A stretch of DNA of 64,000 nt. Source: Candidatus Falkowbacteria bacterium (lineage in GTDB: Bacteria > Patescibacteriota > Patescibacteriia > Patescibacteriales > VMTK01). A program made the position numbers and the translations under genes. Under the pieces are notes generated by a model. That model did not search any database, had not been told where the DNA came from, and was given only the letters and a program-made list of their open reading frames with translations. The DNA lies in the NCBI GenBank assembly GCA_013791585.1, contig VMTK01000018.1:7316-71315 (forward strand). Reading direction: 5' to 3'. Within the stretch, counting starts at the first letter, position 1. The number at the start of each line of letters is the position of its first letter. Below, piece by piece: positions 17,145 to 49,553 of the stretch.

Positions 17145-17150
17145 TGAAAA

Positions 17151-21926: not shown

Positions 21927-24803
21927 ATGATCAAAGAACTGCCAAAGGCGTATGAGCCGTCCAAATATGAAGACGGGATTTATAAAAAATGGGAAAAGTC
22001 CGGTTTTTTTAATCCTGATAATTTAGATTTGCCCAAAAACGCGCCAAGCTATACTATTATTTTGCCGCCGCCAAACATTACTGACAAACTGCATTTAGGG
22101 CATTCTTCCATGCTTGCCATAGAAGATTTGCTGATCCGCTATCATAGGATGAAAGGATTTAGAACACTTTGGCTGCCGGGCACGGATCACGCCGCAATTG
22201 CCACGCAGAATGTTGTTGAAAAAAAGCTATTAAAAGAAGAGGGGAAAACAAGGCAAGATTTGGGCAGGGAAAAATTCTTAGAAAAAGTCTTGGAATTCGT
22301 AAAAATTACCCAGTCTGTTATTTTGCGTCAAACCAGAAAAATGGGAGCTTCTCTGGATTGGTCGCGTGAAGCATTTACTTTGGATAAGCCCAGAGAAGAG
22401 GCAGTCAAGAAAATGTTTATTGATATGTATGAGGCAGGAGTGATTTACCGCGGAGAGAGGATTGTTAATTGGTGTCCGCGCTGCCATTCAACATTGGCTG
22501 ATGATGAAGTGGAATACAAAGACCAACAAGCGAAATTGTACACTTTTAAATATAGCAAGGACTTTCCTTTTACTATTGCCACAACTCGGCCGGAAACAAA
22601 GCTTGGCGATACGGCGGTTGCGGTGAATCCAAAAGACAAAAGGTACAAAAAATATATTGGCAAGGTTTATGAAGTGGATTTTGTCGGGATAAAATTAAAA
22701 CTGAAAATTATCGCTGATCGGCATGTTGAAATGGATTTTGGCACAGGCGCGCTGGGCGTGACGCCGGCGCATTCTATGGCTGATTGGCAGATGGCGGAAG
22801 CAAACGGTTTGGAAATTATAAAAGTAATCGGCGAGGACGGGAAAATTAATAATAACTTCAAAAAATATTCAGGCAAGACAGTTGAGGAAGCTCGGGAGAT
22901 GATTGTTAAAGAGTTAAGAAAAAATAATCTTTTGGAGAAAGAGGAAGAGATAGAAAATAATTTGTCTATTTGCTACAGGTGCAATACTCCCATAGAGCCG
23001 TTGCCGTCTAAGCAGTGGTTTGTAAGTGTTGATAAAAAATTAAAGCGGCTTGGAGGCGAAACACAAAAACACAAAAACACAAAAACACAAAAACACAAAT
23101 TAGATATTGAAGGCAAAACGCTTAAAGAAGCCGCCATAGAAGCTGTTAAATCCGGAAAGATTAAGTTTATTCCGGACAGGTTTGAAAAAAGATATATTGA
23201 TTGGATGGAAAATTTGCATGATTGGTGCATTTCAAGGCAGATTTGGTTTGGGCATAGGATTCCGGTATGGCATAGAACACGAAAACACGAAAACACGAAA
23301 ACACAAAAACACGAAAACACAAAAACACGAAAACACAAAAACACGAAAACACAAAAACACGAAATAGAGGAAATTTATGTCGGGATTGAACCGCCGAAAG
23401 GTGAAGGATGGGTTCAAGATCCGGATTCTTTAGATACTTGGTTTTCTTCTGGGATGTGGACTTTTTCTACATTGGGCTGGCCTGATAATTTTAAAAATGG
23501 GAAAAAGAAAGGGGATCTATCAAGGTTTCATCCTACTCAGGTTTTGGAAACCGGCTATGATATTCTTACGCTTTGGGTTTCTCGCATGATAATGATGTCT
23601 TTGTTCGCTTTGCGGGAAATACCTTTTGAAAATGTTTATCTGCACGGCATGGTTTTGGACGAGCATGGCAAGAAAATGAGCAAGTCAAAAGGCAATGGCA
23701 TTGATCCTGTTGATATGATTGATAAATTCGGCGCGGACGCGGCGCGCCTGTCTTTGCTTATAGGCAATACTCCGGGAAATGATTTGCGGTTAAGCGAAGA
23801 GAAAATCGCCGGGTTTAGGAATTTGGTTAATAAGATTTGGAATGTTTCGAGGTATGTAATTTCAGATTTCAGATTTCAGACCCCGCCCAGCTCCGCTGAC
23901 CGGGGCTGGGTTTCAGATTTCAGATTTAATCAAAAAAATTTAACAGTATCCGACAAATGGATTTTAGGCAAGATGGAAAATCTAATTAAGGAAACAGGCG
24001 ATGATCTGGATAATTACAGATTTTCGCAGGCAGGCGAAAGATTGCGGGAATTTACTTGGAATGATTTCGCGGATTGGTATTTGGAAGTCAGCAAGTTTGA
24101 AAAAAATAAAGAAAAAGGAAAAATACTATCGGTAATTTTAAATGATTTATTGAAATTATGGCATCCTTTTATTCCGTTTGTGACGGAAAAAATTTGGGAA
24201 GAGATGGGGAATGATAAATTTTTAATGATTGAAAAGTGGCCGGTAACCCCCCACCCCCAACCCCTCCCCCACTCCTGTTGTCGCGGGAGAGGGGAGATAG
24301 ATTTTGAATTGATAAAAGATGTTATCACAGCCATACGCAACGCGCGGGCGGAAAACAAGATTGAGCCGGCGCGGAAAATCAAGGCGGTAATTTACGGAGG
24401 CAAATCAGCGGATTTAATCAAGTCGCAGGAGTATTTGATTAAAAACATGCGGACAGGGATTAAAGAATTAGAAATTAAGGAAAAAGCAGATAAAATAAAG
24501 AATCGCCGCAGTCCTCTGCGAGAGGCTGCGGCGGGGCAGAGAATGTGGCATTGTCTTGTTCCTAAAGATGCCATTCATATTGCCGTTGCCGGCATTGAAA
24601 TTTATCTGATCGGCGCGGTTGATGAGGAAAAAGAAAAAATCAGAATTAAAAAAGAACGCGAGAATTTGGAAAAATTAATTATTATGGCAGAAAAAAAATT
24701 ATCCAATAAAGAGTTTGTGGAAAAAGCGCCGGAAAAAATCGTGAAACAGGAAAAAGAGAAATTGAAATTGCGAAAAGAGGAATTGAAAAAGCTAACCAAG
24801 TAA
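21927..24803 (+). CDS. valS: valyl-tRNA synthetase with multiple repeat-derived in-frame inserts
   Basis: PPPNITDKLHLGHS (HIGH), KMSKSKGN (KMSKS), C-terminal coiled coil; inserts at 23060-23099, 23277-23364, 23859-23928, 24245-24296, 24504-24533. Confidence 0.95.
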   Translation: MIKELPKAYEPSKYEDGIYKKWEKSGFFNPDNLDLPKNAPSYTIILPPPNITDKLHLGHSSMLAIEDLLIRYHRMKGFRTLWLPGTDHAAIATQNVVEKKLLKEEGKTRQDLGREKFLEKVLEFVKITQSVILRQTRKMGASLDWSREAFTLDKPREEAVKKMFIDMYEAGVIYRGERIVNWCPRCHSTLADDEVEYKDQQAKLYTFKYSKDFPFTIATTRPETKLGDTAVAVNPKDKRYKKYIGKVYEVDFVGIKLKLKIIADRHVEMDFGTGALGVTPAHSMADWQMAEANGLEIIKVIGEDGKINNNFKKYSGKTVEEAREMIVKELRKNNLLEKEEEIENNLSICYRCNTPIEPLPSKQWFVSVDKKLKRLGGETQKHKNTKTQKHKLDIEGKTLKEAAIEAVKSGKIKFIPDRFEKRYIDWMENLHDWCISRQIWFGHRIPVWHRTRKHENTKTQKHENTKTRKHKNTKTQKHEIEEIYVGIEPPKGEGWVQDPDSLDTWFSSGMWTFSTLGWPDNFKNGKKKGDLSRFHPTQVLETGYDILTLWVSRMIMMSLFALREIPFENVYLHGMVLDEHGKKMSKSKGNGIDPVDMIDKFGADAARLSLLIGNTPGNDLRLSEEKIAGFRNLVNKIWNVSRYVISDFRFQTPPSSADRGWVSDFRFNQKNLTVSDKWILGKMENLIKETGDDLDNYRFSQAGERLREFTWNDFADWYLEVSKFEKNKEKGKILSVILNDLLKLWHPFIPFVTEKIWEEMGNDKFLMIEKWPVTPHPQPLPHSCCRGRGEIDFELIKDVITAIRNARAENKIEPARKIKAVIYGGKSADLIKSQEYLIKNMRTGIKELEIKEKADKIKNRRSPLREAAAGQRMWHCLVPKDAIHIAVAGIEIYLIGAVDEEKEKIRIKKERENLEKLIIMAEKKLSNKEFVEKAPEKIVKQEKEKLKLRKEELKKLTK

Positions 24804-24860
24804 TTAAAATAATTTTGTGTTACGCGTTCCCCCGCCCGTTTTTCGCGCGGCGGGGCAGGC

Positions 24861-25952: not shown

Positions 25953-26000
25953 TAGGCGGTAATTTGAAATTAGAAATTAGAAATTTGGTTTTTGAGATAT

Positions 26001-26043
26001 AAAAAACCGCTCCGAGATGTGTGAACTGGGAGCGGTTTTTGGT
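26001..26043. terminator. bidirectional hairpin terminator (A6 CCGCTCC .. GGAGCGG T5)
   Basis: Read directly downstream of the MscS gene. Confidence 0.7.
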
Positions 26044-26056
26044 TTATGCGTAAAAT

Positions 26057-26112: not shown

Positions 26113-26152
26113 CGCTATGGTTTATGGAAGGCGTTTAATGTCTTGTTTGGAT

Positions 26153-26180: not shown

Positions 26181-26207
26181 GGAGGTAATCATCTAATTAA
26201 CAAAATT

Positions 26208-27311
26208 ATGGCAAACAGCAATCTTACAAACGCAAAAAGAGCGAAGAACGACGAGTTTTATACTCAGTATGGCGATATTCAAAAAGAGATTGGAGCGTAT
26301 TTGGAATACAACGGAGATGTATTTCGCGGCAAAGTGGTGTATTGCAACTGCGACGATCCGTTTGAGAGCAATTTCTTTCGCTATTTCGCGCTTAATTTCA
26401 ACAAGATTGGATTAAAACAGCTGATCACCACCAGCTATAAACCCTCGCCCGTAGCCAACACGCAATTGAGTTTGTTCGGCGATGATAAAACTCTCACACG
26501 AAATCACCTGTGCGCCTCTGGCGCAAAAGGCCGTCCAAAGGTAACCGCCAACAAATTTATTATCAACGAGGCGCGCGACATAGACGGCGACGGAGAGTTC
26601 AATTTGAAGGACATTGCCAAGCAGTTAAAAGCGAACAAAAACAATGAATGGACGCCGTTAGAAAATGACGGCGATTTCCGCAGTGATGAATGTATAAAAT
26701 TACTTAAGCAATCCGACATCGTGATTACCAATCCTCCGTTCAGTTTGTTTCGCGAATATGTTAAGCAACTTTTTGATTACAATAAAAAGTTCGTCATTAT
26801 CGGCAGTATGAACGCGATTACTTACAAAGAAATATTTCCACTGATTAAAAATAATAAGATGTGGCTGGGAAATGGTTTTCGCGCCGGCAACGCATATTTT
26901 TTTACGCCAAACGCAAGGGAATACGCCAGCGGCGTACTTGATGACAAAACAGGGCTTGTCAAATTTCGTAATTGCCATTGGTTCACCAACCTTGACCACG
27001 GCCGTCGCCATCAATCATTGCAATTAATGACAATGAAAAATAATTTGAAATACAGCAAGCACAAAGAAATTCAAGGCAAAAAAGCGTATGATAAATACGA
27101 TAATTACAATGCCATAGAAGTGCCGTTTACCGATTCTATCCCGAGCGATTATGACGGCGTGATGGGCGTGCCGATTAGTTTTTTGGATAAATATTGTCCG
27201 GAGCAGTTTGAGATTGTAAAATTTAGACACGGAAACGATGATAAGGATTTGAGATTAAAAGATGGAAAATGTCCGTATTTTAGAGTTTTAATTAAACATA
27301 AGAAGAAATAA
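26208..27311 (+). CDS. N6-adenine DNA methyltransferase, EcoRI-methylase-like family
   Basis: KNDEFYTQYGDIQKEI..VYCNCDDPFESNFFRYF N-terminus and the TNPPF catalytic motif. Confidence 0.75.
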   Translation: MANSNLTNAKRAKNDEFYTQYGDIQKEIGAYLEYNGDVFRGKVVYCNCDDPFESNFFRYFALNFNKIGLKQLITTSYKPSPVANTQLSLFGDDKTLTRNHLCASGAKGRPKVTANKFIINEARDIDGDGEFNLKDIAKQLKANKNNEWTPLENDGDFRSDECIKLLKQSDIVITNPPFSLFREYVKQLFDYNKKFVIIGSMNAITYKEIFPLIKNNKMWLGNGFRAGNAYFFTPNAREYASGVLDDKTGLVKFRNCHWFTNLDHGRRHQSLQLMTMKNNLKYSKHKEIQGKKAYDKYDNYNAIEVPFTDSIPSDYDGVMGVPISFLDKYCPEQFEIVKFRHGNDDKDLRLKDGKCPYFRVLIKHKKK

Positions 27312-27316
27312 TTTTT

Positions 27317-27805
27317 ATGAATAAATATCTCTTCCAGCGAACTGCTAAATATTGGAATGATTGGGCTTGTCAGTCAGTTAAACTAGTTAAAGATTTTCTA
27401 GTGAGCGACATTACCGAAGACGAACCCCGTTTCAGGTCATATTATATTTTACTTTCATACGCTTTTGAATTGATGCTTAAATCTAGATTGGTAATGGTTA
27501 CTAACATTTCCGAAGATGAACTCATCAAAATATACGGACACGATGTCAAAAAAATATTACAGAAGTTGAAAGATTTAAACGAATTAAAAAATATAGGGAT
27601 TAAGGATTTACCCGAAGTAATAAAGCAATATATCTATAAAATCGAAACAACCGATAGTAAAATATTCTATATCTATGATTTCACCAATATCAGGTATTAT
27701 CCCAAAGAAGACAAAGATTCTTGGGAAACAGCAAATATCATTCTTTGTACGGCTGATATAATGTTAAGCATTTCAAATAAAATTCGTGCAATTGAAGTAA
27801 AATAA
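27317..27805 (+). CDS. hypothetical helical protein coupled to the methylase
   Basis: 5-nt gap after the methylase; YAFELMLKSRL...YGHDVKKILQKL is loosely HEPN-like, but no Rx4-6H motif. Confidence 0.5.
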   Translation: MNKYLFQRTAKYWNDWACQSVKLVKDFLVSDITEDEPRFRSYYILLSYAFELMLKSRLVMVTNISEDELIKIYGHDVKKILQKLKDLNELKNIGIKDLPEVIKQYIYKIETTDSKIFYIYDFTNIRYYPKEDKDSWETANIILCTADIMLSISNKIRAIEVK

Positions 27806-27837
27806 AATAACATGACAAGTTGCATTAAAATAAAAAT

Positions 27838-28734
27838 ATGAACGATTTAATAAACATAAAAGTTATCCAAAAAGATTTTAATGGTGAAAAGAAAAGGTTT
27901 GTTAATGCGCGCGAATTGCACAACTGGCTTAAAGTCGGCAGAGATTTTTCCACTTGGATAAAAGACAGGATAGAAAAATATGATTTTACAGAAAATTTGG
28001 ATTATTTTATAGCCTTCCCCCAATTTGGGGATGGACTAAAACCCAATAAAACAGGGAGAATTGTGGATTCTAAAAAAGGAACTATTTTACCAAAAGAATA
28101 CATTTTATCAGTGGATATGGCCAAAGAATTGGCTATGATTGAAAATAGCGAAATCGGCAAGCAAGTAAGAAAATATTTTATCCGAGTAGAGGGCGAATTT
28201 AAAAAAGTCATGCGGATCGCCACCATGGATCCCAAAACGATCAATCAATTGACTGAACAATTTTGGGAAACCAGAAATGAAACCAAAGAATACCGCCGAG
28301 ATTTTACTGACTGCATCAAAGATTTTGTGGCTGTTAAAAATTATGGAACTTATACCGATATGTTCTATAAATTTTTATTTTTGGAAAGAGCTAAAGAATA
28401 CAGAAAACTTTTAAGATTGATTAAAAAAGATTTTACCCGCAATTATATGTATGAGGAAATTTTATTGATTATCGGCGCGTTTGAAACAGGATTAGCAGGC
28501 GAGGTTGAAAAAGAATTTAAAAAATTGAAAAGACATCTAACCCAAAAAGAATTTGAAAAAATATTTAAAGAATTTTCGTCGCAGAGAAATTGGAAAGTTT
28601 ACCAAAAACGCGCCAGAAATATTATGGCTACTTATGATGAGGAATTAAGAAATATCAAGCATCCGAAATTGATTGATTATAAAAAGGAATTTAGCCAGGA
28701 AGACATTCAAAAATTAATTGGCAAGGAAAAATAA
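27838..28734 (+). CDS. AntA/AntB-type phage antirepressor-like protein
   Basis: RFVNARELHNWLKVGRDFSTWIKDRIEKYDFTENLDY. Confidence 0.65.
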   Translation: MNDLINIKVIQKDFNGEKKRFVNARELHNWLKVGRDFSTWIKDRIEKYDFTENLDYFIAFPQFGDGLKPNKTGRIVDSKKGTILPKEYILSVDMAKELAMIENSEIGKQVRKYFIRVEGEFKKVMRIATMDPKTINQLTEQFWETRNETKEYRRDFTDCIKDFVAVKNYGTYTDMFYKFLFLERAKEYRKLLRLIKKDFTRNYMYEEILLIIGAFETGLAGEVEKEFKKLKRHLTQKEFEKIFKEFSSQRNWKVYQKRARNIMATYDEELRNIKHPKLIDYKKEFSQEDIQKLIGKEK

Positions 28735-28833
28735 TATGAAAATTAAAATGCGTTTAGTTTATATCTCGCTTGCCAATATAAACAAAATAGCCCAAAACGT
28801 TTACATTACTAAGACCAATATAAACTAAAATAT

Positions 28834-29649
28834 ATGAAAGAAAATCAATTCGAAAAGATAAAGAGATTAGACGAAAACGGTAAAGAGTACTGGTCGTCTC
28901 GGGAACTTGCCAAAGAGCTTGATTATGTTGATTACCGTAATTTTTTGACCGCAGTTAATAAGGCTAAAACTGCTTGTGAAAATAGCGGCGAAGTTATCCA
29001 CAACCATTTCGTTGACGCCAACGAGATGGTTCAAATTGGCTCTGGAGCGGAAAAACCGCTGGAAACCATATATCTCTCGCGATATGCCTGCTATCTGATA
29101 GTCCAAAACTCTAACCCGACAAAAGTTGTTGTGGCAAAAGGACAAACATATTTTGCGATTCAAACTCGTCGACAGGAAAAGACAGATAATCTAATTGAAG
29201 ATCACAACCGCGTTTTCTTGCGTGAGGAAATGAAGAAGCACAATATAAACTTGATGCATACTGCTTCCGAGGCTGGAGTCGAAAGTTATGCAATTTTTCA
29301 AAATTATGGTTATAAAGGGCTGTATGGCGGATTAACAATGCAAGATATTCATGCAAAAAAGAAGTTAAAGAAACCGCAAAAAATTCTTGACCATATGAAT
29401 AGCGAAGAGCTAGCGGCCAATCTATTCCGCGCCACTCAAACAGATGCAAAGATAAAACGTGAAAATATAAAAGGGCAGGGAAATGCAAACCTTGCGCATT
29501 ATGAAGTTGGCCAAAAAGTTCGAAATACAATCACGGCTTTAGGTGGAACTATGCCAGAAAAACTTCCAACCCCAGATGCTATTGGAAAAGCGCAAACGAG
29601 AATAAAGAAATCAAAAAATAAGAAATTATTAGGTGGAAATAAAAAATAA
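28834..29649 (+). CDS. DNA damage-inducible protein D (DinD)-like
   Basis: FEKIKRLDENGKEYWSSRELAKELDYVDYRNFLTAVNKAKTACENSG..HFVD. Confidence 0.65.
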   Translation: MKENQFEKIKRLDENGKEYWSSRELAKELDYVDYRNFLTAVNKAKTACENSGEVIHNHFVDANEMVQIGSGAEKPLETIYLSRYACYLIVQNSNPTKVVVAKGQTYFAIQTRRQEKTDNLIEDHNRVFLREEMKKHNINLMHTASEAGVESYAIFQNYGYKGLYGGLTMQDIHAKKKLKKPQKILDHMNSEELAANLFRATQTDAKIKRENIKGQGNANLAHYEVGQKVRNTITALGGTMPEKLPTPDAIGKAQTRIKKSKNKKLLGGNKK

Positions 29650-29793
29650 TTATGGCAAAAATAAAACATCCAATTAAAGAATTTTGGGAATCAGACAAAA
29701 AATCTAATTATCTTGAAGTATCAAAAACAAAAGATAGTTCGGTAAAGATAGTGAAATTTATAAAACCAAAATCGAAAAACAAGAAAAAATAAT

Positions 29794-30960
29794 ATGAAAA
29801 CAATTTTAAAAACCGACATCACTGTTAAAGATATTTGCGAGGGGTTCGTCTATAACGAACTGGAAGGCAAGGGTTTGTTTGGCTTGTCCGGCAAGTTGAC
29901 TATTCAGCCGGAGTATCAGCGAAATTACATCTATGCGTCTGACGGCGGAAAAAGAGAGATGGCTGTTATTGAATCACTGCTTAAAGATTACCCGATAGGT
30001 TTGATTTATTTTAATAAGGTTTCTGAAAATAATTTGGAAGTTTTGGACGGACAGCAGCGCATCACCAGTGTTGGGCGTTTTGTGACTGACAAATTTGCAA
30101 TAAAAGATGAAAACGGGATGCAATATTTTGGCGGCATGGCAAAAGACAAGAAAGCCAAGATTTTGGAAACAAAACTGCTCATTTATGAATGCGAAGGCAC
30201 GGAAAGCCAGATAAAAGAGTGGTTTAAGACGATTAATATTGCCGGAGTTCCGCTCGTCTCCCAAGAATTGTTAAATGCGATCTATTCCGGACCATTCGTT
30301 ACTCTGGGCAAAGAAGAGTTCAGCAACAGCCAAAATGCCAATATTCAAAAATGGAGCGCGTATGTAAAGGGCAGCGCAAACCGACAGGCATTTTTTGAGA
30401 GGGCTTTAGACTGGGCGAGTAAAGGAAATATTGATGATTATATGAGCATTCATCGCCACGACAAAAATATCAATGAGTTAAAAAAATATTTCAACAGCGT
30501 GATTGACTGGGTTTCCGGTGTATTTATTGATGTAGAAAGCGAGATGCGCGGACTTGAGTGGGGACGAATGTATGAGCAGTATCACAAGAAAGCATATAAC
30601 CCTGCAAAAGTGTCGGCAGAAGCTCAAAAACTCTACGGCGATCCTTATATTAAAAATCGCAAGGGCATCTTTGAGTATATTCTCGGCGGCTCCATTGACA
30701 CAAAATTGCTTGAAGTTCGCGTTTTTGATGACGCGACCAAAAAAGCAGTTTATGCAGCGCAAACTGCCAAAGCAAAGAAAAAAGGCAAGTCAAATTGCCC
30801 GCATTGCGCTATTGGACACGACGCAAACAAAGAGAAAATTTGGAGTTTAAGCGATATGGACGCCGACCATGTTGCGGCTTGGAGCAAGGGCGGCGCGACT
30901 TCGGCAAAGAATTGTCAGATGCTTTGCAAGACGCATAATAGGGCAAAGGGAAATCGTTAA
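29794..30960 (+). CDS. DUF262 (GmrSD N-terminal-like) + C-terminal HNH nuclease
   Basis: [12 protein letters not shown] (DGQQR) and [32 protein letters not shown] (HNH). Confidence 0.8.
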
Positions 30961-31304: not shown

Positions 31305-32513
31305 ATGCCAAAAATCATAACGGACAAGAATAAAATCAAGGAATTATTAACAAGGGGGGTTGTTGATGTTATTGTTAAAAAAAGTTTGGAGAAAAAGCTG
31401 ATGAGCGGCAAGCAGTTGAGGATAAAGCACGGCGTTGATCCCACAGGGCCTAAAATTCATCTTGGCAGGGCTTCCACTTTGCGCAAGCTGGCAAAATTTC
31501 AGGAGCTTGGCCATAAGGTGGTTTTAATTATAGGCGACTTTACAGCTTTAATCGGGGATGCGTCTGATAAAGATGAAGAGCGGACAATGCTTACTCGCGC
31601 GCAAGTCAAAGAAAACATGAAAGGGTATCTTAAGCAAATGGGGAATATTTTTAATATAGAAAAGGCGGAAATTCATTATAACAGCGAATGGCTGAGCAAA
31701 CTGAATTATTATGATATATGCAGACAGGCAAACGCTTTTTCAGCCGCGCAGATATTGGATAGGGATAATTTTTCAAAGCGCTTTAAAGCAGGCGAGAGGA
31801 TTTCTTTGCGTGAAATGTTTTATCCTTTAATGCAGGGCTATGACAGCGTCGCGATAAAATCCGACATTGAAATAGGAGGAAGCGACCAGTTGTTTAATGT
31901 TTTGGCAGGCAGGGAATTGCAGCGGCTGTATAAGCAGGAGCCGCAGGATATTATTACTTTTAAATTAATGGATGGCATTGACGGAAGGAAAATGAGCACG
32001 AGCTGGGGCAATGTTATCTGCGTTGTTGAAGATCCAAAAGATATTTACGGCAAGATTATGTCAATGCGCGATGAAATTATCGCGCAATATTTTGAATTAG
32101 CCACGGATATTTTTTTAAGCGAAATTAAAAAGTATGAGCAAGAAATGAAAGCTAACAAAATCAATCCCCGTGATTTAAAAATGAAATTGGCGCGTGAAAT
32201 TGTAAGAATTTACCATGGCGATAAAAAAGCGAAACAAGCGGAAGAGCATTTTATCAAAACAGTTCAGAAAAAAGAAGCGCCGGACGAAGTAAGAAGTAAG
32301 AAGTTAGAAGTAAGAAGTATGAATATAATTAATTTACTAATGGAAGTAAAATTAGTCGGCAGCAAAGGAGAAGCAAGGCGTTTAATAGCGCAGAACGGAA
32401 TTAAAGTTGACGGTAAAATAGTTGAAGATGCTAACAGGGAAATTAAAATAAGCAAAAAAGAAATGTTATTGCAAAGAGGCAAGAGGCAATTTGTTAAAGT
32501 AATTGGAAATTAG
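31305..32513 (+). CDS. tyrS: tyrosyl-tRNA synthetase (start taken at MPKIITDK)
   Basis: HGVDPTGPKIHLGRA, KMSTSWGN, C-terminal S4-like RRLIAQNGIKVDG; the -10 box lies inside the longer ORF-track start; in-frame 7-nt repeat at 32286-32320. Confidence 0.85.
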   Translation: MPKIITDKNKIKELLTRGVVDVIVKKSLEKKLMSGKQLRIKHGVDPTGPKIHLGRASTLRKLAKFQELGHKVVLIIGDFTALIGDASDKDEERTMLTRAQVKENMKGYLKQMGNIFNIEKAEIHYNSEWLSKLNYYDICRQANAFSAAQILDRDNFSKRFKAGERISLREMFYPLMQGYDSVAIKSDIEIGGSDQLFNVLAGRELQRLYKQEPQDIITFKLMDGIDGRKMSTSWGNVICVVEDPKDIYGKIMSMRDEIIAQYFELATDIFLSEIKKYEQEMKANKINPRDLKMKLAREIVRIYHGDKKAKQAEEHFIKTVQKKEAPDEVRSKKLEVRSMNIINLLMEVKLVGSKGEARRLIAQNGIKVDGKIVEDANREIKISKKEMLLQRGKRQFVKVIGN

Positions 32514-32561
32514 AAATTGGCGATTTGGATATAAAATAGAATTTTATTTTTGCGTTTTTTT

Positions 32562-36050: not shown

Positions 36051-36188
36051 ATGTGATGCGAGATTGAGGCTAAAGCCTCAAAACCTGACTTAAAAGTCGG
36101 TAGAAGTTTTTGATTTGCGCATATTTTAATCAGGGGTTGAAAATTCGCAAAGAAAATGATAAAGTAGTATCATATAACGCGCAACAAA

Positions 36189-36644: not shown

Positions 36645-36942
36645 CGCATAACGCGTAACGCGTAAAACTTTATTGTCATTCCTCCGTACATTGTCATCCC
36701 GTAAAAATTTTGCGTGTGAGCAAAATTTTATACGGGATCCAGGGTTAAAATCAACGAATTATATTTTAGAATACGCAAGTTAAAAGCTATAAATACGATT
36801 AACAAAGCATTAAGCTTAAGCGTGTCTAATCCTGTATTCCGCATCATTTAATAATAAAAAAAATAATGAGTGTGCGGGATGACAAAAAAATCATATAAAT
36901 CATATAAATCCCTGCTAAATAAAAGGGCAGAGATATAAGATA

Positions 36943-37986: not shown

Positions 37987-38047
37987 TCGCATAACTCATA
38001 TCGCATATCGCATAACGCATAACGCATAACGCATAACATAAATATAT

Positions 38048-38791
38048 ATGGAAACAAAAAAAATCGTAAAATATTGCGAGGATTATCTTAAAGTCAAAGA
38101 TTTTGAAGATTATTGCGTTAATGGCCTTCAGGTTGAAGGCGCGCCAAAAGTAAGCAAAATTATTACCGGAGTCAGCTTGTCGGAGAAATTAATCAGAGAA
38201 GCAATCAAGAAGCAAGCCAAGATGATAATGGTCCATCACGGTTTATTTGTTAAGCAAATCGGCAAGCCGCCATGCGTCAAAGCCGTTGTCAGAAATAGAT
38301 TAAAATTGCTTTTGGAAAACGATATTAATCTTTGCGGCTTTCACCTGCCGCTTGACGCGCATCCGGTGATTGGCAATAATATCAGCTTGTGCAAACTGTT
38401 TAACATTCAAAAAACCGAGCCGTTTGATGTTGGATTCGTGGGCGAGTTAAAGCAAGCGATAGCGCTTGAAGATTTTTATAATTTAATTTGCGATGAATTG
38501 GAAACTCAGCCCTATATAATACCGGCAGGTCCGAAGAAAATAAAGAAAATCGGCGTTATTTCCGGCGGAGCTTCTCCCGACTTTCAACAAGCGGTTGAGC
38601 TTGGCGCGGATACTTATTTATGCGGCGACGCGCGCGAGGAAGTGGTTGAAGCGGTCCAAGAAGCAAAAATTAATTTTATCAATGCCGGACATTATAATAC
38701 AGAGAAGCTTGGCATTCAGAATTTGGGAAATTTAATCGCCAAGAAGTTTAAAATAAAAGTTGAATTCGTTGATGTGCCTTGCGATGTATAA
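38048..38791 (+). CDS. Nif3-like dinuclear metal centre protein
   Basis: NGLQVEG, MIMVHHG, CGFHLPLDAHP, NAGHYNTE. Confidence 0.8.
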   Translation: METKKIVKYCEDYLKVKDFEDYCVNGLQVEGAPKVSKIITGVSLSEKLIREAIKKQAKMIMVHHGLFVKQIGKPPCVKAVVRNRLKLLLENDINLCGFHLPLDAHPVIGNNISLCKLFNIQKTEPFDVGFVGELKQAIALEDFYNLICDELETQPYIIPAGPKKIKKIGVISGGASPDFQQAVELGADTYLCGDAREEVVEAVQEAKINFINAGHYNTEKLGIQNLGNLIAKKFKIKVEFVDVPCDV

Positions 38792-38874
38792 GGAGTTATT
38801 CTTTATTGGTATTTGACATATTCACCAAAAGGATATATATTTAAGTGAGTATATTCACCTAAATACTATTTTTT

Positions 38875-39999
38875 ATGAACATAAAAAGACAAATACAAAA
38901 GAATATAGAACAAAACCTTTTTAAAGGTAAAATAATTATTATTTATGGGGCAAGGCAGGTAGGAAAGACAACTTTAGTTAAGGAGATACAAAAAAAATAT
39001 TTTGCTAAAGCTAACTATTTTAATTGCGACGAAATAGACATAAGAGATGCTTTGACGGATAAAACATCTACTGAAATTAAAGCGTTTTTAGGACATAAGA
39101 AATTGATTATTCTTGATGAAGCTCAAAGAGTAAAAAATATCGGTTTAACTTTAAAATTGATTATTGATAATTTTCCTGATTTGCAAATAATAGCTACGGG
39201 ATCATCTTCTTTTGATTTGTCCAATAAAATCGTTGAGCCGCTAACCGGCAGAAAAATAGAGTATTATTTATACCCTTTTTCATTAGGTGAATTAAGATCA
39301 ATTTATTCAGCCATAGAAACTGATCGGCTTTTGGAAACAAGAATGATTTTCGGGATGTATCCTGAAATCGCGCAAAACCAAGATAATATCGCGCAAAATT
39401 TAAAAAGCGTTGCCAGAAGTTACGCGTATAAAGATGTTTTGCAATATCAAAATATAAAAAATCCTGAAATATTGGAAAAATTATTGCAAGCGATAGCCTT
39501 GCAGATTGGAAATGAGGTCTCTTATAATGAATTGTCAAATATAATAGGCATTGATAAAAACACGGTTTCAAATTACATCTCAATTTTAGAAAAATCTTTT
39601 ATTATATTTCGCTTAAATCCATTTAGCAGAAATTTAAGAAATGAATTAAAAAAATTAAGAAAAATATATTTTTATGACAACGGAATCAGAAACGCGCTTA
39701 TTAATAATTTAAACCCTTTAAATTTAAGGCAAGATGTCGGCGCTTTATGGGAAAATTTTATGATTAGCGAAAGATTAAAATATAATAATAATTATAATAT
39801 AGATCAGAATATTTATTTTTGGAGAACAAAACAGAAGCAAGAGATTGATTATTTAGAGGAGAGAGGCGGAAAATTGCAAGGTTTTGAATTTAAGTGGAAT
39901 AAAGGCGGTTTTAAAAAACCGAAAATTTTTTTATCCGCTTACCCGGAAAGTTCCATTGAACTAGTTAACAGAGAAAATTATAAAAATTTTGTTTTGTAA
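38875..39999 (+). CDS. AAA-type ATPase (COG1373-like, AAA_14 + DUF4143)
   Basis: IYGARQVGKTTL Walker A, ILDEAQ Walker B. Confidence 0.75.
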   Translation: MNIKRQIQKNIEQNLFKGKIIIIYGARQVGKTTLVKEIQKKYFAKANYFNCDEIDIRDALTDKTSTEIKAFLGHKKLIILDEAQRVKNIGLTLKLIIDNFPDLQIIATGSSSFDLSNKIVEPLTGRKIEYYLYPFSLGELRSIYSAIETDRLLETRMIFGMYPEIAQNQDNIAQNLKSVARSYAYKDVLQYQNIKNPEILEKLLQAIALQIGNEVSYNELSNIIGIDKNTVSNYISILEKSFIIFRLNPFSRNLRNELKKLRKIYFYDNGIRNALINNLNPLNLRQDVGALWENFMISERLKYNNNYNIDQNIYFWRTKQKQEIDYLEERGGKLQGFEFKWNKGGFKKPKIFLSAYPESSIELVNRENYKNFVL

Positions 40000-40008
40000 A
40001 TAAAACAT

Positions 40009-42543
40009 ATGTATCTATCGCTAAACTGGCTAAAAGATTTTGTTAATATTCCGAAATCAATAACTCCGGAAGAGTTAGGTTTGCGCTTAACTATGCATAC
40101 GGTGGAGATTGACGGAGTGGAAAAGCAGGCAGATAAGCTTGCTCATATTGTTGTGGGAAAAATTTTAGAAATCAAGAAACACCCTGATGCTGATCGCTTG
40201 CAACTGGTTAAAGTTGATATTAAGGATAAAAAATTAGATATAGTTTGCGGCGCTTCAAACATTGAAATAGGACAGTCAGTTCCAGTGGCTTTGGCAGGCG
40301 CTATTTTACCTAATGGAGCGGAAATTAAAGAAACTGAGGTGAGGGGAGAAAAATCTTTCGGCATGCTTTGCGCTGAAGATGAATTGGGGCTGGGCGATGA
40401 TCATAGAGGTATTATGATATTGGACAAGGGCGCAAAGATCGGACAGAGTTTAGGAGAGTATTTGAAATTAAAAGATGTTATTTTTGAAGTTGACAATAAG
40501 TCAATTACCAATCGCCCTGATCTGTGGGGGCATTACGGAATGGCGCGGGAGATCGCGGCTTTTTTAAGTGTTAAATTAAGACCTCACCCCGTCCCTCTCC
40601 TTAGTAAGGAGAGGGTGCCTGATAAGGCGGGTGAGGTTAAGATAGATGTTAAGGTTGAGAATTTTAAATTATGCCCTCGCTATATGGCGGTATGCTTGGA
40701 CGGAATCAAGATTGAAGATTCGCCCAAATGGATGCGGGAGCGGCTGATAGCCGTAGGCATGCGGCCGATAAATAATATTGTTGATATAACCAATTATGTG
40801 ATGCTGGAATTGGGACAGCCCTTGCATGCGTTTGATGTTAGAACAATCTTAGGCGATGAAATTCCAAATAACAAATTTCAAATAACAAACCCCGCAACAT
40901 CGCTGCGCGACAACGGGGCAGGTAAATCTCAAATTCCAAATCTCAAATTCCAAAATGATATTAAGATAGTTGTGAGGCGGGCTAAAAAAGGCGAGGTGAT
41001 GGAAACTTTAGACGGGGAGAAAAAAGAATTAGACAATGAAATGCTGGTGATAGCCGATGATAAAAAGCCGATTGCCATAGCCGGTGTAATGGGAGGCGCC
41101 AACAGCGAGATAAGAAATGAAACCAATTCCATTATCATGGAATGCGCCAATTTTGACTTTGCTTCAATCAGAAAAACATCGCAGAAACTGGGTTTGCGCA
41201 CGGAATCTTCAATGCGATTTGAAAAAGGGCTGGATCCTAATCTTTGCGAATTGGCTTTGGCGCGCGCCGTTGAGCTGGTTAAAAAAATATGCCCTAAAGT
41301 AAAAGTCGTCAGTGAATTAGCGGATGAAAAAAAGTTTACGATAAATCAAGGCCCGATTAAGCTGAATTTAGACTGGCTGAATCAGAGTTTAGGCGAAATA
41401 ATTGAAGAAAAAAAAGCAGTAAATATTTTAGAAAATCTGGGTTTTGGCGTTAAGAAGATTAAAGATGAGCTGGATGTTACAATTCCAACATGGCGCGCCG
41501 GCCGGGACATTTCCATTCCCGAGGACTTGCTTGAGGAAGTCGCGAGGATTTTCGGCTATAACAATTTAAAGCCCGCTATGCCCAAGGTTGCCATGAAAGC
41601 TCCTGAACTTAATCAAGAGCGGTTGTTTGAGCGCGAGATAAAAAATATTTTGTCCAACGGCGCGGGCTTGTCGGAAGTTTATAATTATTCTTTTGTCGGA
41701 GAAGATCAGCTCACAAAGCTTGGCATTGATTTTTCTTCGCACATTAAATTGGCCAATCCGATAGCTGTTCATCAAACATTGCTCCGCCAGAATTTGGCTC
41801 CGAATTTGATCAATAATATCAAAACAAATCAAGCTAAATTTGAGCAGTTTGGCTTTTTTGAAATAGGCAGTGTTTATTTAAGCACTCCGGGGGATATTAA
41901 CAAAGACAATAGCGGCAAAGAGCATCTTCCTTATCAGGAAAAACGGATCGGCATTGTTTTGGCGGCTGATAAAAAAACAGATGTTTTCAGCCAAGCCAAA
42001 GGAGCGGTTGAATATTTGTTGTCATCGTTGAACTTGCCGGTTGATTTTACAGCGATTGAATCCGGCCCGGGCTGGGCTGATGAAAATATCGCCGCGGATA
42101 TTAATTGCCAAAAAAATAAAATAGGAATAGCGGCCAAGCTGAATGAAAAATCAGCCAAAGCTTTGGGCGTGAAAAAAGAAGCCGCGATAGTTGAGATAAT
42201 TTTGAGCGAGCTGTATAAACTAGCCGGCAAGCAAGCCGTTAAGAAATATCAGGAGTATGAAAAATATCCGCCGCTTGTCAGGGATTTGGCTTTTGTGGTT
42301 AGCGAGAAAATATTGTATAATAACATCAGGAATGATATAATTAATTTTAGTGAATTAATAAGGAGCGCTGAATTGTTTGATGTTTATTATGGCGGCAAGC
42401 TGGGATTTGGCAAAAAAAGCTTGGCGTTTCACATTGTTTATCAAGCCGGCAGAACATTAACAACGGAAGAAATTGATATTTTGCAAAAACAGTTAATTCA
42501 GAGGTTGGAAGAGAAATTTGACGCGAAGATTAGGGACTTTTGA
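40009..42543 (+). CDS. pheT: phenylalanyl-tRNA synthetase beta subunit
   Basis: N-terminal tRNA-binding domain (HPDADRLQLVKVD), B3/4, B5 and C-terminal FDX-ACB-like regions; inserts at 40582-40636 and 40860-40960. Confidence 0.95.
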   Translation: MYLSLNWLKDFVNIPKSITPEELGLRLTMHTVEIDGVEKQADKLAHIVVGKILEIKKHPDADRLQLVKVDIKDKKLDIVCGASNIEIGQSVPVALAGAILPNGAEIKETEVRGEKSFGMLCAEDELGLGDDHRGIMILDKGAKIGQSLGEYLKLKDVIFEVDNKSITNRPDLWGHYGMAREIAAFLSVKLRPHPVPLLSKERVPDKAGEVKIDVKVENFKLCPRYMAVCLDGIKIEDSPKWMRERLIAVGMRPINNIVDITNYVMLELGQPLHAFDVRTILGDEIPNNKFQITNPATSLRDNGAGKSQIPNLKFQNDIKIVVRRAKKGEVMETLDGEKKELDNEMLVIADDKKPIAIAGVMGGANSEIRNETNSIIMECANFDFASIRKTSQKLGLRTESSMRFEKGLDPNLCELALARAVELVKKICPKVKVVSELADEKKFTINQGPIKLNLDWLNQSLGEIIEEKKAVNILENLGFGVKKIKDELDVTIPTWRAGRDISIPEDLLEEVARIFGYNNLKPAMPKVAMKAPELNQERLFEREIKNILSNGAGLSEVYNYSFVGEDQLTKLGIDFSSHIKLANPIAVHQTLLRQNLAPNLINNIKTNQAKFEQFGFFEIGSVYLSTPGDINKDNSGKEHLPYQEKRIGIVLAADKKTDVFSQAKGAVEYLLSSLNLPVDFTAIESGPGWADENIAADINCQKNKIGIAAKLNEKSAKALGVKKEAAIVEIILSELYKLAGKQAVKKYQEYEKYPPLVRDLAFVVSEKILYNNIRNDIINFSELIRSAELFDVYYGGKLGFGKKSLAFHIVYQAGRTLTTEEIDILQKQLIQRLEEKFDAKIRDF

Positions 42544-42697
42544 ATTAAATAATAAAATAGTAAAATAATAAAATAATTAACTAAATTTGAGTCTAAAATT
42601 TAACGCAACACTCTTTATTAAAGCAGTATTAAAATGTTCGTTGAAGCTAATTAAATTAATTTTATTATTTTATTATTTTACTATTTAATTATTTTTT

Positions 42698-43018
42698 ATG
42701 TTTGAAACAACTCAAGATTTATTAAACACAGTCAAAGCCGTTTCTATCTTCGGCTTGGCTTTTTTCGCCTGCTGGGCGATTTTTTATCTGGCAATGATTT
42801 TGCGCCAAGGGTTTAAAATCATAAAAGACACCAGAGAGCGCCTGCATAAAGTTGACGAAGTAATCAAGGCGCTGAAAGAAAAAATAGAGCACAGCGCTTC
42901 GTATTTGCTGTTGATTGGCGAAGGGGTCAAGAAATTGGTTGACATGGCCAAGGAGTATTCTGGCAAGGGGGAGAAGAAAGCAAGAAGCAAGAAGCAAGAA
43001 GTGAGAAGCAAGAAGTGA
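42698..43018 (+). CDS. hypothetical small membrane protein
   Basis: One TM segment; the C-terminal tail is encoded by the 7-nt repeat AGAAGTG/AGAAGCA. Confidence 0.45.
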   Translation: MFETTQDLLNTVKAVSIFGLAFFACWAIFYLAMILRQGFKIIKDTRERLHKVDEVIKALKEKIEHSASYLLLIGEGVKKLVDMAKEYSGKGEKKARSKKQEVRSKK

Positions 43019-43068
43019 GAAGTGAGAAGTGAGAAAAAATAGTTAAATGCGTAAAATTATTTTTTATT

Positions 43069-43118
43069 ATGCTGGAATTTTTGCAGGAGAATTTTAATTT
43101 GTATAAGGAGCTGTATTA
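43069..43118. repeat. 50-nt direct repeat, left copy, flanking the DUF433/DUF5615 cassette
   Basis: ATGCTGGAATTTTTGCAGGAGAATTTTAATTTGTATAAGGAGCTGTATTA; 49/50 identical to 43779-43828. Confidence 0.9.
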
Positions 43119-43163
43119 AGAATTTTGACAATAAAAAATATTTGTGATAGTTTTATAAATAAT

Positions 43164-43415
43164 ATGATAAATAAATATAAAAATAGAATAATTATTGATC
43201 CTGAAATAATGGTCGGCAAGCCGATTATTAAAGGGACTAGGATTACCGTGGAATTGATTTTAAAATTACTTGCCCAAGGGCAACCCACTGAAGAGATTCT
43301 AAATGCTTATCCTCATCTTAAAAATAAGGATATTTACGCATGCTTAGAATATGCCGGCGGGATTGTTGAAGAAGAAAGAGTTTTGCCTTTAAGCCGTAAA
43401 TTAAAATTCGCATAG
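43164..43415 (+). CDS. DUF433-family antitoxin-like protein
   Basis: IIIDPEIMVGKPIIKGTRITVELILKLLAQG. Confidence 0.7.
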   Translation: MINKYKNRIIIDPEIMVGKPIIKGTRITVELILKLLAQGQPTEEILNAYPHLKNKDIYACLEYAGGIVEEERVLPLSRKLKFA

Positions 43416-43417
43416 TT

Positions 43418-43768
43418 ATGAAATTTCTTTTTGATGAAAATATAGGATGGCGCGTTGTTGAATTTTTCAAGATGCAAGATTATGACATTAAATCAGCATT
43501 AGATGAATTAAGAGGCGAGAGCGATAAAAAAATATTAAAAATCGCTTATCAAGAAAAGAGAATTATTGTGACATTGGATAAGGATTTTTGTAGTTTTATT
43601 TTCAAGGATTTTATCCATTGCCACGGGGTAATTTTATTAAGATTGTCCAACGAATCGCAGGAAAATATTATTAACGCGCTAAAAAATGTTTTAGAAAATA
43701 CAGGCGATGAGCTTCATGGCAGCTTCTTGGTTGTCAATGATGATAATGTGAGAATCCGCAAGATATGA
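43418..43768 (+). CDS. DUF5615 (PIN/Mut7-C-like) toxin-like protein
   Basis: MKFLFDENIG...IIVTLDKDF pattern, adjacent to the DUF433 gene. Confidence 0.65.
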   Translation: MKFLFDENIGWRVVEFFKMQDYDIKSALDELRGESDKKILKIAYQEKRIIVTLDKDFCSFIFKDFIHCHGVILLRLSNESQENIINALKNVLENTGDELHGSFLVVNDDNVRIRKI

Positions 43769-43778
43769 TTTTATATTA

Positions 43779-43828
43779 ATGCTGGAATTTCTGCAGGAGA
43801 ATTTTAATTTGTATAAGGAGCTGTATTA
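43779..43828. repeat. 50-nt direct repeat, right copy
   Basis: One T/C difference from 43069-43118. Confidence 0.9.
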
Positions 43829-43851
43829 GTTTGAACTAATAGAATAATATA

Positions 43852-43970
43852 AACACGAAAACACGAAAACACGAAAACACACGGTCTAACGGCCTAAACA
43901 CAAAAAACACTATTTATTTTTTTAGTGTTTTCGTGTTTTGAGGCGAAGCCGAGTGTTTTCGTGTTTTTTT
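43852..43970. repeat. intergenic inverted pair of CACGAAAA arrays (hairpin between convergent genes)
   Basis: AAACACGAAAACACGAAAACACGAAAACAC ... GTGTTTTCGTGTTTTGAGGCGAAGCCGAGTGTTTTCGTGTTTTT; same words as the intragenic arrays. Confidence 0.85.
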
Positions 43971-46215: not shown

Positions 46216-46378
46216 ATATTTTTTTTAAATTAATTATTATTTAGTTAACGGGTTAGCGAGTTAACGGGTTGTTATTTTATTATCGCTTCGCTATTTATTA
46301 AAATTAATAAACTAATACATTAATAAAATATCTATATTTTTATTATTTAATTAACCCGTTAATTCGTTAACTAAAAAA

Positions 46379-48854: not shown

Positions 48855-48908
48855 AATAATAACATATATGTTATAAAAGTCAAGTAGGGGCAGAACAATG
48901 TTCTGCCC

Positions 48909-49553
48909 CTACTTTGATTCAGCGATTATTTCCAAAATTAAATTATTAATAATTTCCATCTCTTCTTCGCTAAATTTTTGCAAGACAAATTTCTCTACAG
49001 GTATTTTATCAGCCGTTTCTGTTTTAATTCCGATTCTAATTCGTTTAAATTTTTTGGTTTTAAGATGATTGATAATTGACTGTACTCCGTTGTGCCCGGC
49101 GCTTCTTGAATCAGTTGAGATTTTATATTTGCCCAGCTCAATGTCAATATCATCGTGGATTACCGTGAGGATATCGGATAGATTAACCTTTTTCGCCTCG
49201 TCGCAGTCTCTCCGCAGAGGACTGCGACGGAACAGGAATCGCCGCAGTCCCCTTCGGGAGACTGCGGCGGAGCAGTGGGAGGGTAGTAATTTATAATAAG
49301 ACAAAATCGCTTGAACCGCTTGTCCGGAATTATTCATAAAAGTTTGCGGTTTGGCAAGAATTAATCTCCCGCTTTCTCCCTCTCCTTGCGAAGGAGAGGG
49401 TTGGGGCGAGGTAATATCAGCGTTGAATTTTTTATTAAATTTCCAAACTGAATTATATTTTTCAGCCAGAGCGTCAACTGCCATAAAACCGGCATTGTGG
49501 CGGGTGAGTTTGTATTTTTCGCCCGGGTTGCCCAGGCCGATTATTATTCGCAT
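48909..49553 (-). CDS. pth: peptidyl-tRNA hydrolase with two palindrome-derived inserts
   Basis: MRIIIGLGNPGEKYKLTRHNAGF, PQTFMNNSG, SAGHNGVQSI; inserts encoded at 49199-49269 and 49366-49411. Confidence 0.9.
   Translation of the reverse strand: MRIIIGLGNPGEKYKLTRHNAGFMAVDALAEKYNSVWKFNKKFNADITSPQPSPSQGEGESGRLILAKPQTFMNNSGQAVQAILSYYKLLPSHCSAAVSRRGLRRFLFRRSPLRRDCDEAKKVNLSDILTVIHDDIDIELGKYKISTDSRSAGHNGVQSIINHLKTKKFKRIRIGIKTETADKIPVEKFVLQKFSEEEMEIINNLILEIIAESK

Follow-up and report, generated by a model that had tools for sequence, protein, structure and literature searches.

How do short, GC-rich hairpins come to lie inside the essential genes of an AT-rich bacterium without breaking their reading frames, and what kind of element are they? 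The question is raised by a 64-kb stretch of DNA from a Candidatus Falkowbacteria bacterium (contig VMTK01000018.1; Patescibacteriota), hereafter the window, in which a first reading of the sequence (the original prediction) had noted such palindromes within housekeeping genes and likened them to Rickettsia palindromic elements (RPEs). We conclude, with a probability of about 0.72, that they are non-autonomous palindromic repeats of the REP/REPIN kind (REP, repetitive extragenic palindrome), belonging to several families that have spread in this Patescibacteria lineage. What is new is the phylum; the phenomenon itself is known from Rickettsia, and the elements are not of a new kind. The host genes, assigned by Pfam where a match exists, are as follows.

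21927-24803, plus strand: valS (Pfam, PDB alignment)
32550-36050, plus strand: UvrD-type helicase with a PD-(D/E)XK nuclease domain, AddA/PcrA-like (Pfam)
36189-36644, plus strand: small conserved membrane open reading frame (ORF) without a Pfam match
36943-37986, plus strand: pheS (Pfam, PDB alignment)
40009-42543, plus strand: pheT (Pfam, PDB alignment)
48909-49553, minus strand: pth (Pfam, PDB alignment)

The window has a GC content of 37.9% and contains 20 perfect hairpins with arms of at least 8 nt, loops of 3-14 nt and an arm GC fraction of at least 0.6. Block-wise dinucleotide shuffling (40 replicates) yields 1.1 ± 1.0, so that the excess is approximately 18-fold; for arms of at least 10 nt the counts are 9 and 0.05. 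The words CCCTCTCC (9 observed, 0.5 expected), CGCAGTC (10 and 2.45) and CCTCACCCC with up to one mismatch (10 and 3.3) are also enriched. GC-rich palindrome families in an AT-rich genome, as first proposed, are therefore real features of the window, and all of the hairpin sequences quoted in the original prediction are found where it placed them. The density of perfect GC hairpins is 1.6 per 10 kb, compared with 0-0.5 in most AT-rich relatives from the Candidate Phyla Radiation (CPR), and the nearest GTDB species (L004) has none, indicating that the expansion is lineage-specific. The closest GTDB species representatives are Parcubacteria/Falkowbacteria-type metagenome-assembled genomes (MAGs) with PheS identities of 55-69%. 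An assembly artefact is ruled out by the recovery of the same sequence in independent NCBI, ENA and JGI assemblies; the window is identical to contig JAHIHH010000004 of MAG GCA_018899735.1 ('Patescibacteria group bacterium').

In alignments to PDB orthologues, extra residues fall exactly at the hairpins, with 8 and 36 additional residues in Pth and several extra segments in ValRS. Relative to orthologues from the fetched GTDB loci, window-specific segments are present in valS, the helicase (nine), the membrane ORF, pheT and pth. ValRS has 958 residues (870-891 in 10 orthologues) and the helicase 1166 (872-992 in five); a helicase of 950 residues in locus L089 was rejected as a polymorphism because it is truncated by the contig end. 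All of the approximately 17 independent inserts in six genes, repeat arrays counted, keep the frame. The inserts are absent from most orthologues, which upholds the earlier view of lineage-specific, in-frame insertions in conserved housekeeping genes. The segments in pheS, in valS at 24245-24296 and in pheT at 40582-40636 occupy length-variable linkers, where the element replaces sequence and adds no net length.

The inserts are apparently translated as disordered loops rich in Pro, Ser, Gly and Arg, because all of the approximately 17 keep the frame and one in-frame octamer array is exactly three units longer in one strain than in another; excision or ribosomal bypassing would impose neither constraint. 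The AlphaFold2 model of Pth, built with 33 homologues, has a core with a pLDDT (predicted local distance difference test) score of 85-90, and the inserts (residues 51-59 and 94-120) fall below 50 and lack secondary structure. Strands 45-48 and 64-69 enclose the first insert, and helix 73-86 and strand 129-134 the second; together with the gaps in the PDB alignments, this bears out the expected position in loops. The predicted junction peptides across inserts are DITSPQPSPSQGEGESGR, GLRRFLFRRSPLRRDCDEAK and FAPHPFGSIIPK.

Stable GC-rich hairpins in an AT-rich genome do recall the GC clusters and 'byp' hairpins of yeast mitochondria, which likewise invade coding sequence in AT-rich genomes, and intron-like RNA excision or byp-like bypassing would leave the proteins normal. 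However, byp elements disrupt the reading frame and ribosomes skip them, whereas every window insert keeps the frame, an outcome with a chance of about (1/3)^17 if length were unconstrained; the exact three-unit difference in the octamer array speaks to the same effect. Rfam, at gathering and E-value thresholds, detects no intron, ribozyme or known structured RNA at the inserts (its matches in the window are just two tRNAs and one sub-threshold tRNA-like match), and no take-off/landing codon pairs were noted. We regard removal as very improbable. With lengths of 8-36 residues, the inserts also fall far short of inteins.

If the inserts are translated repeats, to what do they belong? The original prediction distinguished two types of element. 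Its CGCAGTC type stands as family A, but the window carries more than two: by sequence and pairing, at least three hairpin families. Family A (CGYCGCAGTC...GACTGCGRCG) forms a doublet of about 90 nt, in which two related hairpins lie in inverted orientation. The left hairpin, CGCC-RCAGTC..GACTGYG-GCG, is followed by a spacer of about 13 nt and by the right hairpin, CGTCGCAGTC-CTCTGCGGAGA-GACTGCGACG-AGGCGG; the terminal inverted repeats are 16 nt long (CCGCCTCGYCRCAGTC). The stem can be drawn as a perfect 10 bp with a 'loop' of 10-11 nt, or as a 13-bp bulged stem with a GCGG tetraloop. The element is stop-free in all six frames. The window contains five family A hairpins, three of them inside ORFs.

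3548-3635, plus strand: intergenic doublet; left hairpin GCCACAGTC..GACTGTGGC, 13-nt spacer, right hairpin CGTCGCAGTCCTCTGCGGAGAGACTGCGACG then AGGCGG
49190-49285, minus strand: doublet in frame in pth; hairpins 49199-49229 and 49240-49269, encoding ..CSAAVSRRGLRRFLFRRSPLRRDCDEA..
24500-24569, plus strand: monomer (24504-24533) with adjacent extra sequence, in frame in valS (RRSPLREAAAGQ..; fold z = -4.3); a 22-residue window-specific segment

The minimum-energy fold of the intergenic doublet, which contains the intergenic CGCAGTC copy first reported at 3556-3626, is one long hairpin in which the left half pairs with the right half (-52.8 kcal/mol, z = -6.5). The RNA of the pth doublet also folds into a single long hairpin (-56.2 kcal/mol, z = -7.3), and 35 nt of the intergenic copy (3590-3625) are identical in pth. 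Just upstream of the intergenic doublet, at 3012-3214, are T-rich repeats containing GGCGCGGCC, with a spacing that alternates between 21 and 15 nt; the minus strand may encode a Lys-rich peptide.

Family A is not confined to this genome. The exact 23-mer GCAGTCCTCTGCGGAGAGACTGC is present in 36 copies in 35 groundwater metagenome loci, mostly as doublets with the consensus ends CCGCCTCGYCRCAGTC...GACTGCGACGAGGCGG. The window shows no blastn overlap with these loci (L212-L246), so the copies stem from other loci or genomes. About 30 of the 36 lie outside long ORFs, and the element is in frame in two real genes, which encode a FemAB-like protein (L219) and an ELP3-like protein (L225). At least two reading frames are used, giving ..RRSPLRRDCD.. 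in pth and valS and ..SSAERLRRG.. in the FemAB-like and ELP3-like proteins. A looser pattern, CGCAGTCN{10,11}GACTGCG, was dropped as too unspecific after it matched more than 120 unrelated viral contigs.

The link to a transposase comes from related genomes. Fragments of a Y1/HUH transposase are present in some family A loci, and the NCBIfam equivalog NF047646 (REP-associated tyrosine transposase, RayT) was passed by a composite of fragments and then by three intact proteins of 182 residues, with scores of 84-94 bits (cut-off 80). The homologues number about 1480, of which many come from Patescibacteria, and names such as RayT or 'transposase [Patescibacteria group bacterium]' are frequent among them; a PDB search with RayT returned just a marginal match to TnpA-REP (4er8, E = 0.79). 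Hairpins stand on both sides of the RayT genes in L247, L248/L249 and L257. The L247 locus, which has the helicase-small ORF-pheS order of the window, carries its RayT gene at a distance of 5 kb from the helicase. The flanks in L247 and L248/L249 are CGGCAGAGTC..GACTCTGCCG hairpins, a type restricted to RayT neighbourhoods across the fetched loci. In L257 the upstream hairpin, CCGCCTCGCC-AGAGTC-TCCTGAAAGG-GACTCT-GGCGG, and the downstream hairpin, CCGTC-AGAGTC-..-GACTCT-GACGAGGCGGGG, correspond to the left and right halves of family A, respectively, with two compensated stem changes. The alignment of RayT flanks to family A includes the CCGCCTCGCC and GACGAGGCGG ends, and in the right-half alignment 100% of cells are paired, with 3 of 10 stem pairs changed on both sides. 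This RayT is found in ERZ27247124, the assembly that includes the contig of the window, and in Ga0180732, the metagenome in which family A is most abundant.

Two other features accompany these loci. Genes for a '23S rRNA intervening sequence protein' (PF05635), present in the window at 51162-51545 and 54114-54626, also adjoin RayT genes in L230, L247 and L248; in L230 one of them terminates within a family A doublet, and a nearby reverse-transcriptase-like ORF is truncated by a hairpin. L247, from a related Patescibacteria MAG, has another hairpin family (ATTCCGGCCTCCGAGCCGGAAT and variants) within ORFs, at 5995-6016, 16384-16405, 16960-16981, 17013-17034, 6087-6109 and 11391-11411; the hosts are the helicase, a Laminin_G_3 protein and a peptidase M16 gene.

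These features resemble the REP/REPIN-RayT system in two respects: short, GC-rich, imperfect palindromes in many copies, and inverted doublets that fold into one long hairpin (family A). A mostly intergenic location, which holds for the metagenome copies, and the homologous hairpins on either side of single-domain Y1/HUH RayT genes in related genomes may be further points of agreement. The elements differ in the Patescibacteria host, in the placement of three of the five window hairpins within ORFs and in the unpaired GTAG head, which family A lacks. GTAG- and CGTC-tagged REPs are known from more than 80 species, and RPE-4 and RPE-6 of Rickettsia have been placed in the CGTC class (Di Nocera et al. 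2013, PMC3733652). The intragenic copies described there, mostly dimers, encode 20-30 residues in tRNA synthetase and repair genes of other phyla (PMC3733652), much like the in-frame monomers and dimers seen here, which encode some 20-30 residues and also favour tRNA synthetase and repair helicase/nuclease genes. The right-hand family A hairpin likewise starts with CGTC and ends with GACG. Published CGTC families, which 'apparently lack a dedicated transposase', have, however, an unpaired CGTC tag, a stem of 8-9 bp, a loop of 4-5 nt and a CCA tail (PMC3733652); in family A the CGTC is paired as the base of the 10-bp stem (13 bp with the bulged extension), the tail is AGGCGG, and homologous hairpins flank RayT genes. 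Given the differences in stem, loop, tail and tag, we file family A as REP/REPIN-like, on architecture and RayT association as read from sequence, and not as a member of a published CGTC family.

The parallel with Rickettsia holds for in-frame insertion at permissive sites and is otherwise refined; some RPEs have themselves been assigned to REPs (PMC3733652). [quoted passage not shown] The phylum also differs, and no sequence relationship was seen, although RPE sequences were not directly compared. The literature searched contains no report of such elements in CPR/Patescibacteria.

Under the REP/REPIN reading, family A would be a RayT-less derivative of a REPtron, most likely moved in trans by RayT in the form of single-stranded hairpin DNA, a route that has been proposed for REPINs. 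The majority of copies would land between genes, and tight genome packing would bring some into ORFs. There they would survive if the net length is a multiple of three, the frame is stop-free and the site is a surface loop or variable linker, and they would be transcribed and translated as the disordered loops described above. The inserts are probably neutral passengers.

Do the remaining hairpins behave in the same way? Family B, CCTCACCCC-n-CCCTCTCC-loop-GGAGAGGG-n-GGGTGAGG, is found in the window exclusively within ORFs. Its best copies are those in pheT and pth, which the original prediction correctly grouped together; degenerate copies occur in valS, the helicase and pheS.

40580-40638, plus strand: family B in pheT; outer stem CCTCACCCC/GGGTGAGG, inner CCCTCTCCTT-AGT-AAGGAGAGGG, GCCT..AGGC; nested
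49364-49413, minus strand: family B in pth; SPQPSPSQGEGESG
24243-24299, plus strand: family B-like C-rich/G-rich hairpin in valS; TPHPQPLPHSCCRGRGE, z = -2.8
34345-34406, plus strand: family B in the helicase; SPPAPSPSHVPGLNREEGEY, a 17-residue segment absent from five orthologues
35256-35343, plus strand: family B in the helicase; perfect CCCCCTCTCCC-GGCT-GGGAGAGGGGG (35271-35296) and a GC-rich tail
35368-35408, plus strand: CCCCTCC-TGTTT-AGGAGGGG hairpin in the helicase; a 13-residue window-specific segment
37412-37455, plus strand: degenerate family B-like segment in pheS; APGPSPAGAGEW, between DTFY and MRTHTSPVQ

The pheT copy folds strongly (-39.1 kcal/mol, z = -7.4). The pheS segment lies where a hairpin had been reported and adds 12 residues relative to PDB PheS, at a position where CPR orthologues vary in length, but the hairpin itself is weak (RNA fold z = -0.3). 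For the helicase hairpins at 34345-34404 and 35256-35300, the RNA folds do not differ significantly from what their own composition would give.

Such copies invite the view that the segments have a local origin in variable linkers, through slippage, template switching or low-complexity drift, and that composition produces the family look. Three of them (the pheS copy, valS 24245-24296 and helicase 34345-34404) are degenerate, do not surpass shuffles in folding and sit in length-variable linkers, and the tandem arrays of the same genes clearly grow by slippage. Composition does not account for exact matches as long as the 35 nt shared by 3590-3625 and pth or the 23 nt shared by pheT and L006 (see below), for 36 metagenome copies of one 23-mer, or for motif enrichments of 4- to 18-fold. 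For family A, the core copies of family B and family C, these matches, copy numbers and enrichments already refute a local origin; as a general account we find it scarcely credible.

The pheT copy of family B recurs in L006: at the equivalent position of a pheT gene whose product shares just 47% identity with that of the window, the core CCCTCTCCTTAGTAAGGAGAGGG is unchanged at 23 of 23 bases, with very similar ends. It is read as PLLSKER in the window and, in another frame, as LSLVRRG in L006; the shared unit is therefore DNA, not peptide. The L006 copy holds an extra nested hairpin, and a very similar copy of the element is intergenic in L239.

The main rival to the REP/REPIN reading starts from this observation. 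It holds that the hairpins are kept in ORFs as nucleic acid, possibly as ribosome-pausing RNA hairpins, mRNA decay or processing sites, binding sites for a host protein, as in the case of REPs, or DNA uptake or replication signals, and that the peptide is a tolerated by-product. Besides the pheT core, it can call on pth site 1, where stems are conserved and loops vary among homologues of 61-68% identity, on the high stability of the folds, and on reports that REPs act as RNA elements (PMC3733652). Most orthologues do without the elements, however, as does the closest GTDB species L004, and strains that are 99.5% identical differ in their presence. Repeated insertion at one tolerant site, or correction of one repeat copy by another, would explain the same conservation. 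We consider a nucleic-acid role unlikely as the general explanation and retain the REP/REPIN reading.

Presence and absence can be followed directly at three sites, the two in pth and the one in the membrane ORF, all of which are found both filled and empty among relatives, as had been anticipated. Among 32 homologues, pth site 1 (after FNAxI) holds a family B peptide in about ten, nothing in six, and other hairpin-like or repeat peptides in others. At pth site 2 (after YYKLLP) the same set has family A just in the window, P0001, P0002 and P0005. An 87-nt insert is present at this site in L087, between GGCATT and ATC, and missing from L084 and L085; L088 has the insert of L087 and, nested in it, one more hairpin. 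L085 and L088 are empty at site 1.

The third site belongs to family C, a single element with the following position.

36374-36452, plus strand: family C in the membrane ORF; 77 nt, perfect 19-bp arms (CCCCGCACCCTTTTGGCAG) and an AT-rich 39-nt loop; z = -6.8

It adds exactly 24 residues to the membrane ORF. The element is missing from P0242, a 98% identical protein, and from two MAGs (L255 and L256) whose sequence directly downstream is 99.5% identical to the window. Without the element the site is AGATTT-ATTGCT-TTAAAG; when filled, it has 78 nt in place of ATTGCT, a net gain of 72. The hairpin lies at an apparent recombination breakpoint: relative to L255, identity is 96.5% upstream (34921-36373) and 99.5% downstream (36453-43881). 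Because of this upstream drop, the filled allele may have arrived by recombination rather than by fresh insertion.

Families B and C, and perhaps all of the elements, could instead be MITEs of a DDE transposase (TA/TAA-duplicating, IS630/Tc1-like or other), with no involvement of RayT. Family C, with its perfect 19-bp terminal inverted repeats around an AT-rich core, has the appearance of such an element, and TAA is found on both sides of family B in the window pheT, L006 and L239. The motif family is also broad, given that a family-B-like element is in frame in a phage ORF of 50% GC. This copy (CCTCACCCCGACCCTCTCCTACATAGGAGAGGG..., at 4138-4169 of L252, one of the IMG/VR contigs L252-L254) is followed by a second G/C hairpin in a 412-residue, phage head-morphogenesis-like ORF; a scan of the viral contigs for family C gave no match. 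No DDE transposase with such ends was seen in any fetched locus, however; the family C site is a replacement of ATTGCT without duplication; and TAA is common in an AT-rich genome, with two of the three copies at the same gene site. More generally, the elements resemble bacterial MITEs (Correia, ERIC, BOX, Nezha, QMITE) in being small and non-autonomous, with terminal inverted repeats in families A and C and occasional in-frame fusions, but neither a target-site duplication nor, apart from the RayT arrangement, a parent insertion sequence was identified, and family A is closer to the REPIN model. An origin from DDE transposons appears improbable for these families.

Several observations nonetheless weigh against the REP/REPIN reading. 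The RayT in ERZ27247124 and Ga0180732 belongs to another MAG, the RayT copies found in general come from other MAGs and contigs of the same samples, and tblastn finds no RayT in the 64-kb window or its near-identical copies. Between family A and the hairpins beside RayT, 2-3 stem pairs differ, with compensation; the exact flanking type is absent from the window, and no RayT flanked by the exact family A stem was found among the fetched loci. Several of the RayT copies that adjoin family A are truncated or interrupted. No target-site signature or cleavage motif was identified, there is no target-site duplication at the pth or membrane-ORF junctions, and no hairpin movement is seen between near-identical strains (100-99.8%). 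Neither family B nor family C shows a transposase link. That the family B cores of pheT and pth are conserved in divergent genomes could reflect selection on the hairpin rather than neutrality, and the TAA flanks of the three family B copies are weak evidence of another mechanism.

In-frame 7- and 8-nt tandem arrays, absent from the original prediction, accompany the hairpins and are more unusual than the hairpins themselves. In valS and pheT, array-hairpin-array units are fused.

23859-23930, plus strand: compound insert in valS; (ATTTCAG)x3, GC hairpin CCCAGCTCCGCTGACCGGGGCTGGG, (TTTCAGA)x2
40858-40962, plus strand: compound insert in pheT; 7-nt CAAATWM array, GC hairpin CCCCG..CGGGG, 7-nt array; 35 residues absent from 16 orthologues
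23059-23100 and 23275-23370: 8-nt AAACACRA arrays in frame in valS
33090-33154, 33629-33770, 34875-34996 and 35594-35672: 8-nt AAACACRA arrays in frame in the helicase
2128-2190 and 43865-43911: further 8-nt AAACACRA arrays

The AAACACRA arrays encode peptides such as TRKHENTKTQKHENTKT, which are absent from orthologues, and in the helicase they are interleaved with CTCGGCYTSCGCCTC units. As 8 nt is not a multiple of three, the frame is kept solely by steps of three units, and strain L255 has exactly three more units (24 nt) in the array at 35594. Hairpins and arrays could conceivably form one system that writes variable-length loops into essential proteins, contingency-like or regulatory and not passive junk, with array length changing in frame-preserving steps and the hairpins selected at the DNA or RNA level. 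Selection at that level is suggested by the identical pheT core in different frames of the two divergent genomes; we hold this combined scheme doubtful.

Other arrays of 7-8-nt units (CGCATAA, GAAATTR, GAATTAT, GTTAACGR) are intergenic and often paired in inverted orientation, forming long AT-rich hairpins. They lie at 25959-26003, 32499-32543, 36627-36673, 37984-38044, 46226-46371, 49571-49679, 53151-53245, 54067-54125, 61124-61168 and 61318-61411. The CGCATAA array at 38009 is one unit shorter in L255/L256, and 28 nt are missing from the arrays at 53170-53240 in L002 (21 nt from the left arm and 7 nt from the right).

If the REP/REPIN reading is correct, selfish hairpins of this type, surviving in essential genes, extend to the ultra-small, tightly packed genomes of Patescibacteria, and a CGTC-headed hairpin family is concretely paired with RayT genes, where the earlier survey saw no dedicated transposase (PMC3733652). 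The inserts inflate and diversify conserved markers (by about 80 residues in ValRS and 180 in the helicase), with consequences for alignment-based phylogeny of CPR bacteria, annotation and structure prediction, and they provide natural presence/absence markers for strain tracking. If translated, they amount to a natural catalogue of loop positions in aminoacyl-tRNA synthetases and Pth that tolerate insertions of 8-36 residues.

The tRNA D-loop insert, which the original prediction had ascribed to the same kind of element, is present as a 35-nt hairpin, but it belongs to a different family and its hosts are tRNA-like copies that ARAGORN and Rfam reject. A degenerate copy with a retained anticodon loop follows each real tRNA (Ile-UAU and Val-GAC).

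18940-19015, minus strand: tRNA-Ile with anticodon UAU, an uncommon way to read AUA in bacteria
18775-18922, minus strand: first tRNA-like copy, D-loop hairpin 18875-18903
18503-18606, minus strand: second tRNA-like copy, D-loop hairpin 18565-18593

Both copies contain the identical GC hairpin (CGCTCCGGTAGCCCAGCGGGGCGTACCGGAGTAAA) in the D-loop; the first also has a T-arm insert, and the second is without the 5' acceptor strand. A functional tRNA with an insert is unsupported: ARAGORN, with introns allowed and the 35-nt hairpin deleted in several ways, recovers neither copy, and Rfam scores 18506-18577 at 28.5 bits (cut-off 29).

Elsewhere in the window, AbiEii-like genes lie at 21194-21916, and a block of EcoRI-type methylase, AntA, Bro-N and GmrSD/HNH genes at 26208-30960, between mscS and tyrS, has the appearance of a phage-derived or defence island. 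The 3-kb stretch at 15141-18255 is higher in GC (40-42%) and dense in strong local hairpins; its ORFs (15266-16219, 16609-16938, 17151-17510 and 17497-18255) have no Pfam match, the stretch has no Rfam match, and two copies of a 126-nt repeat (15141-15266 and 17024-17149) enclose a portion of it. The stretch may represent a structured RNA or else a mobile region. Finally, a 50-nt unit is repeated four times in tandem at 12319-12518, and the near-identical assembly L090 apparently has one unit fewer.

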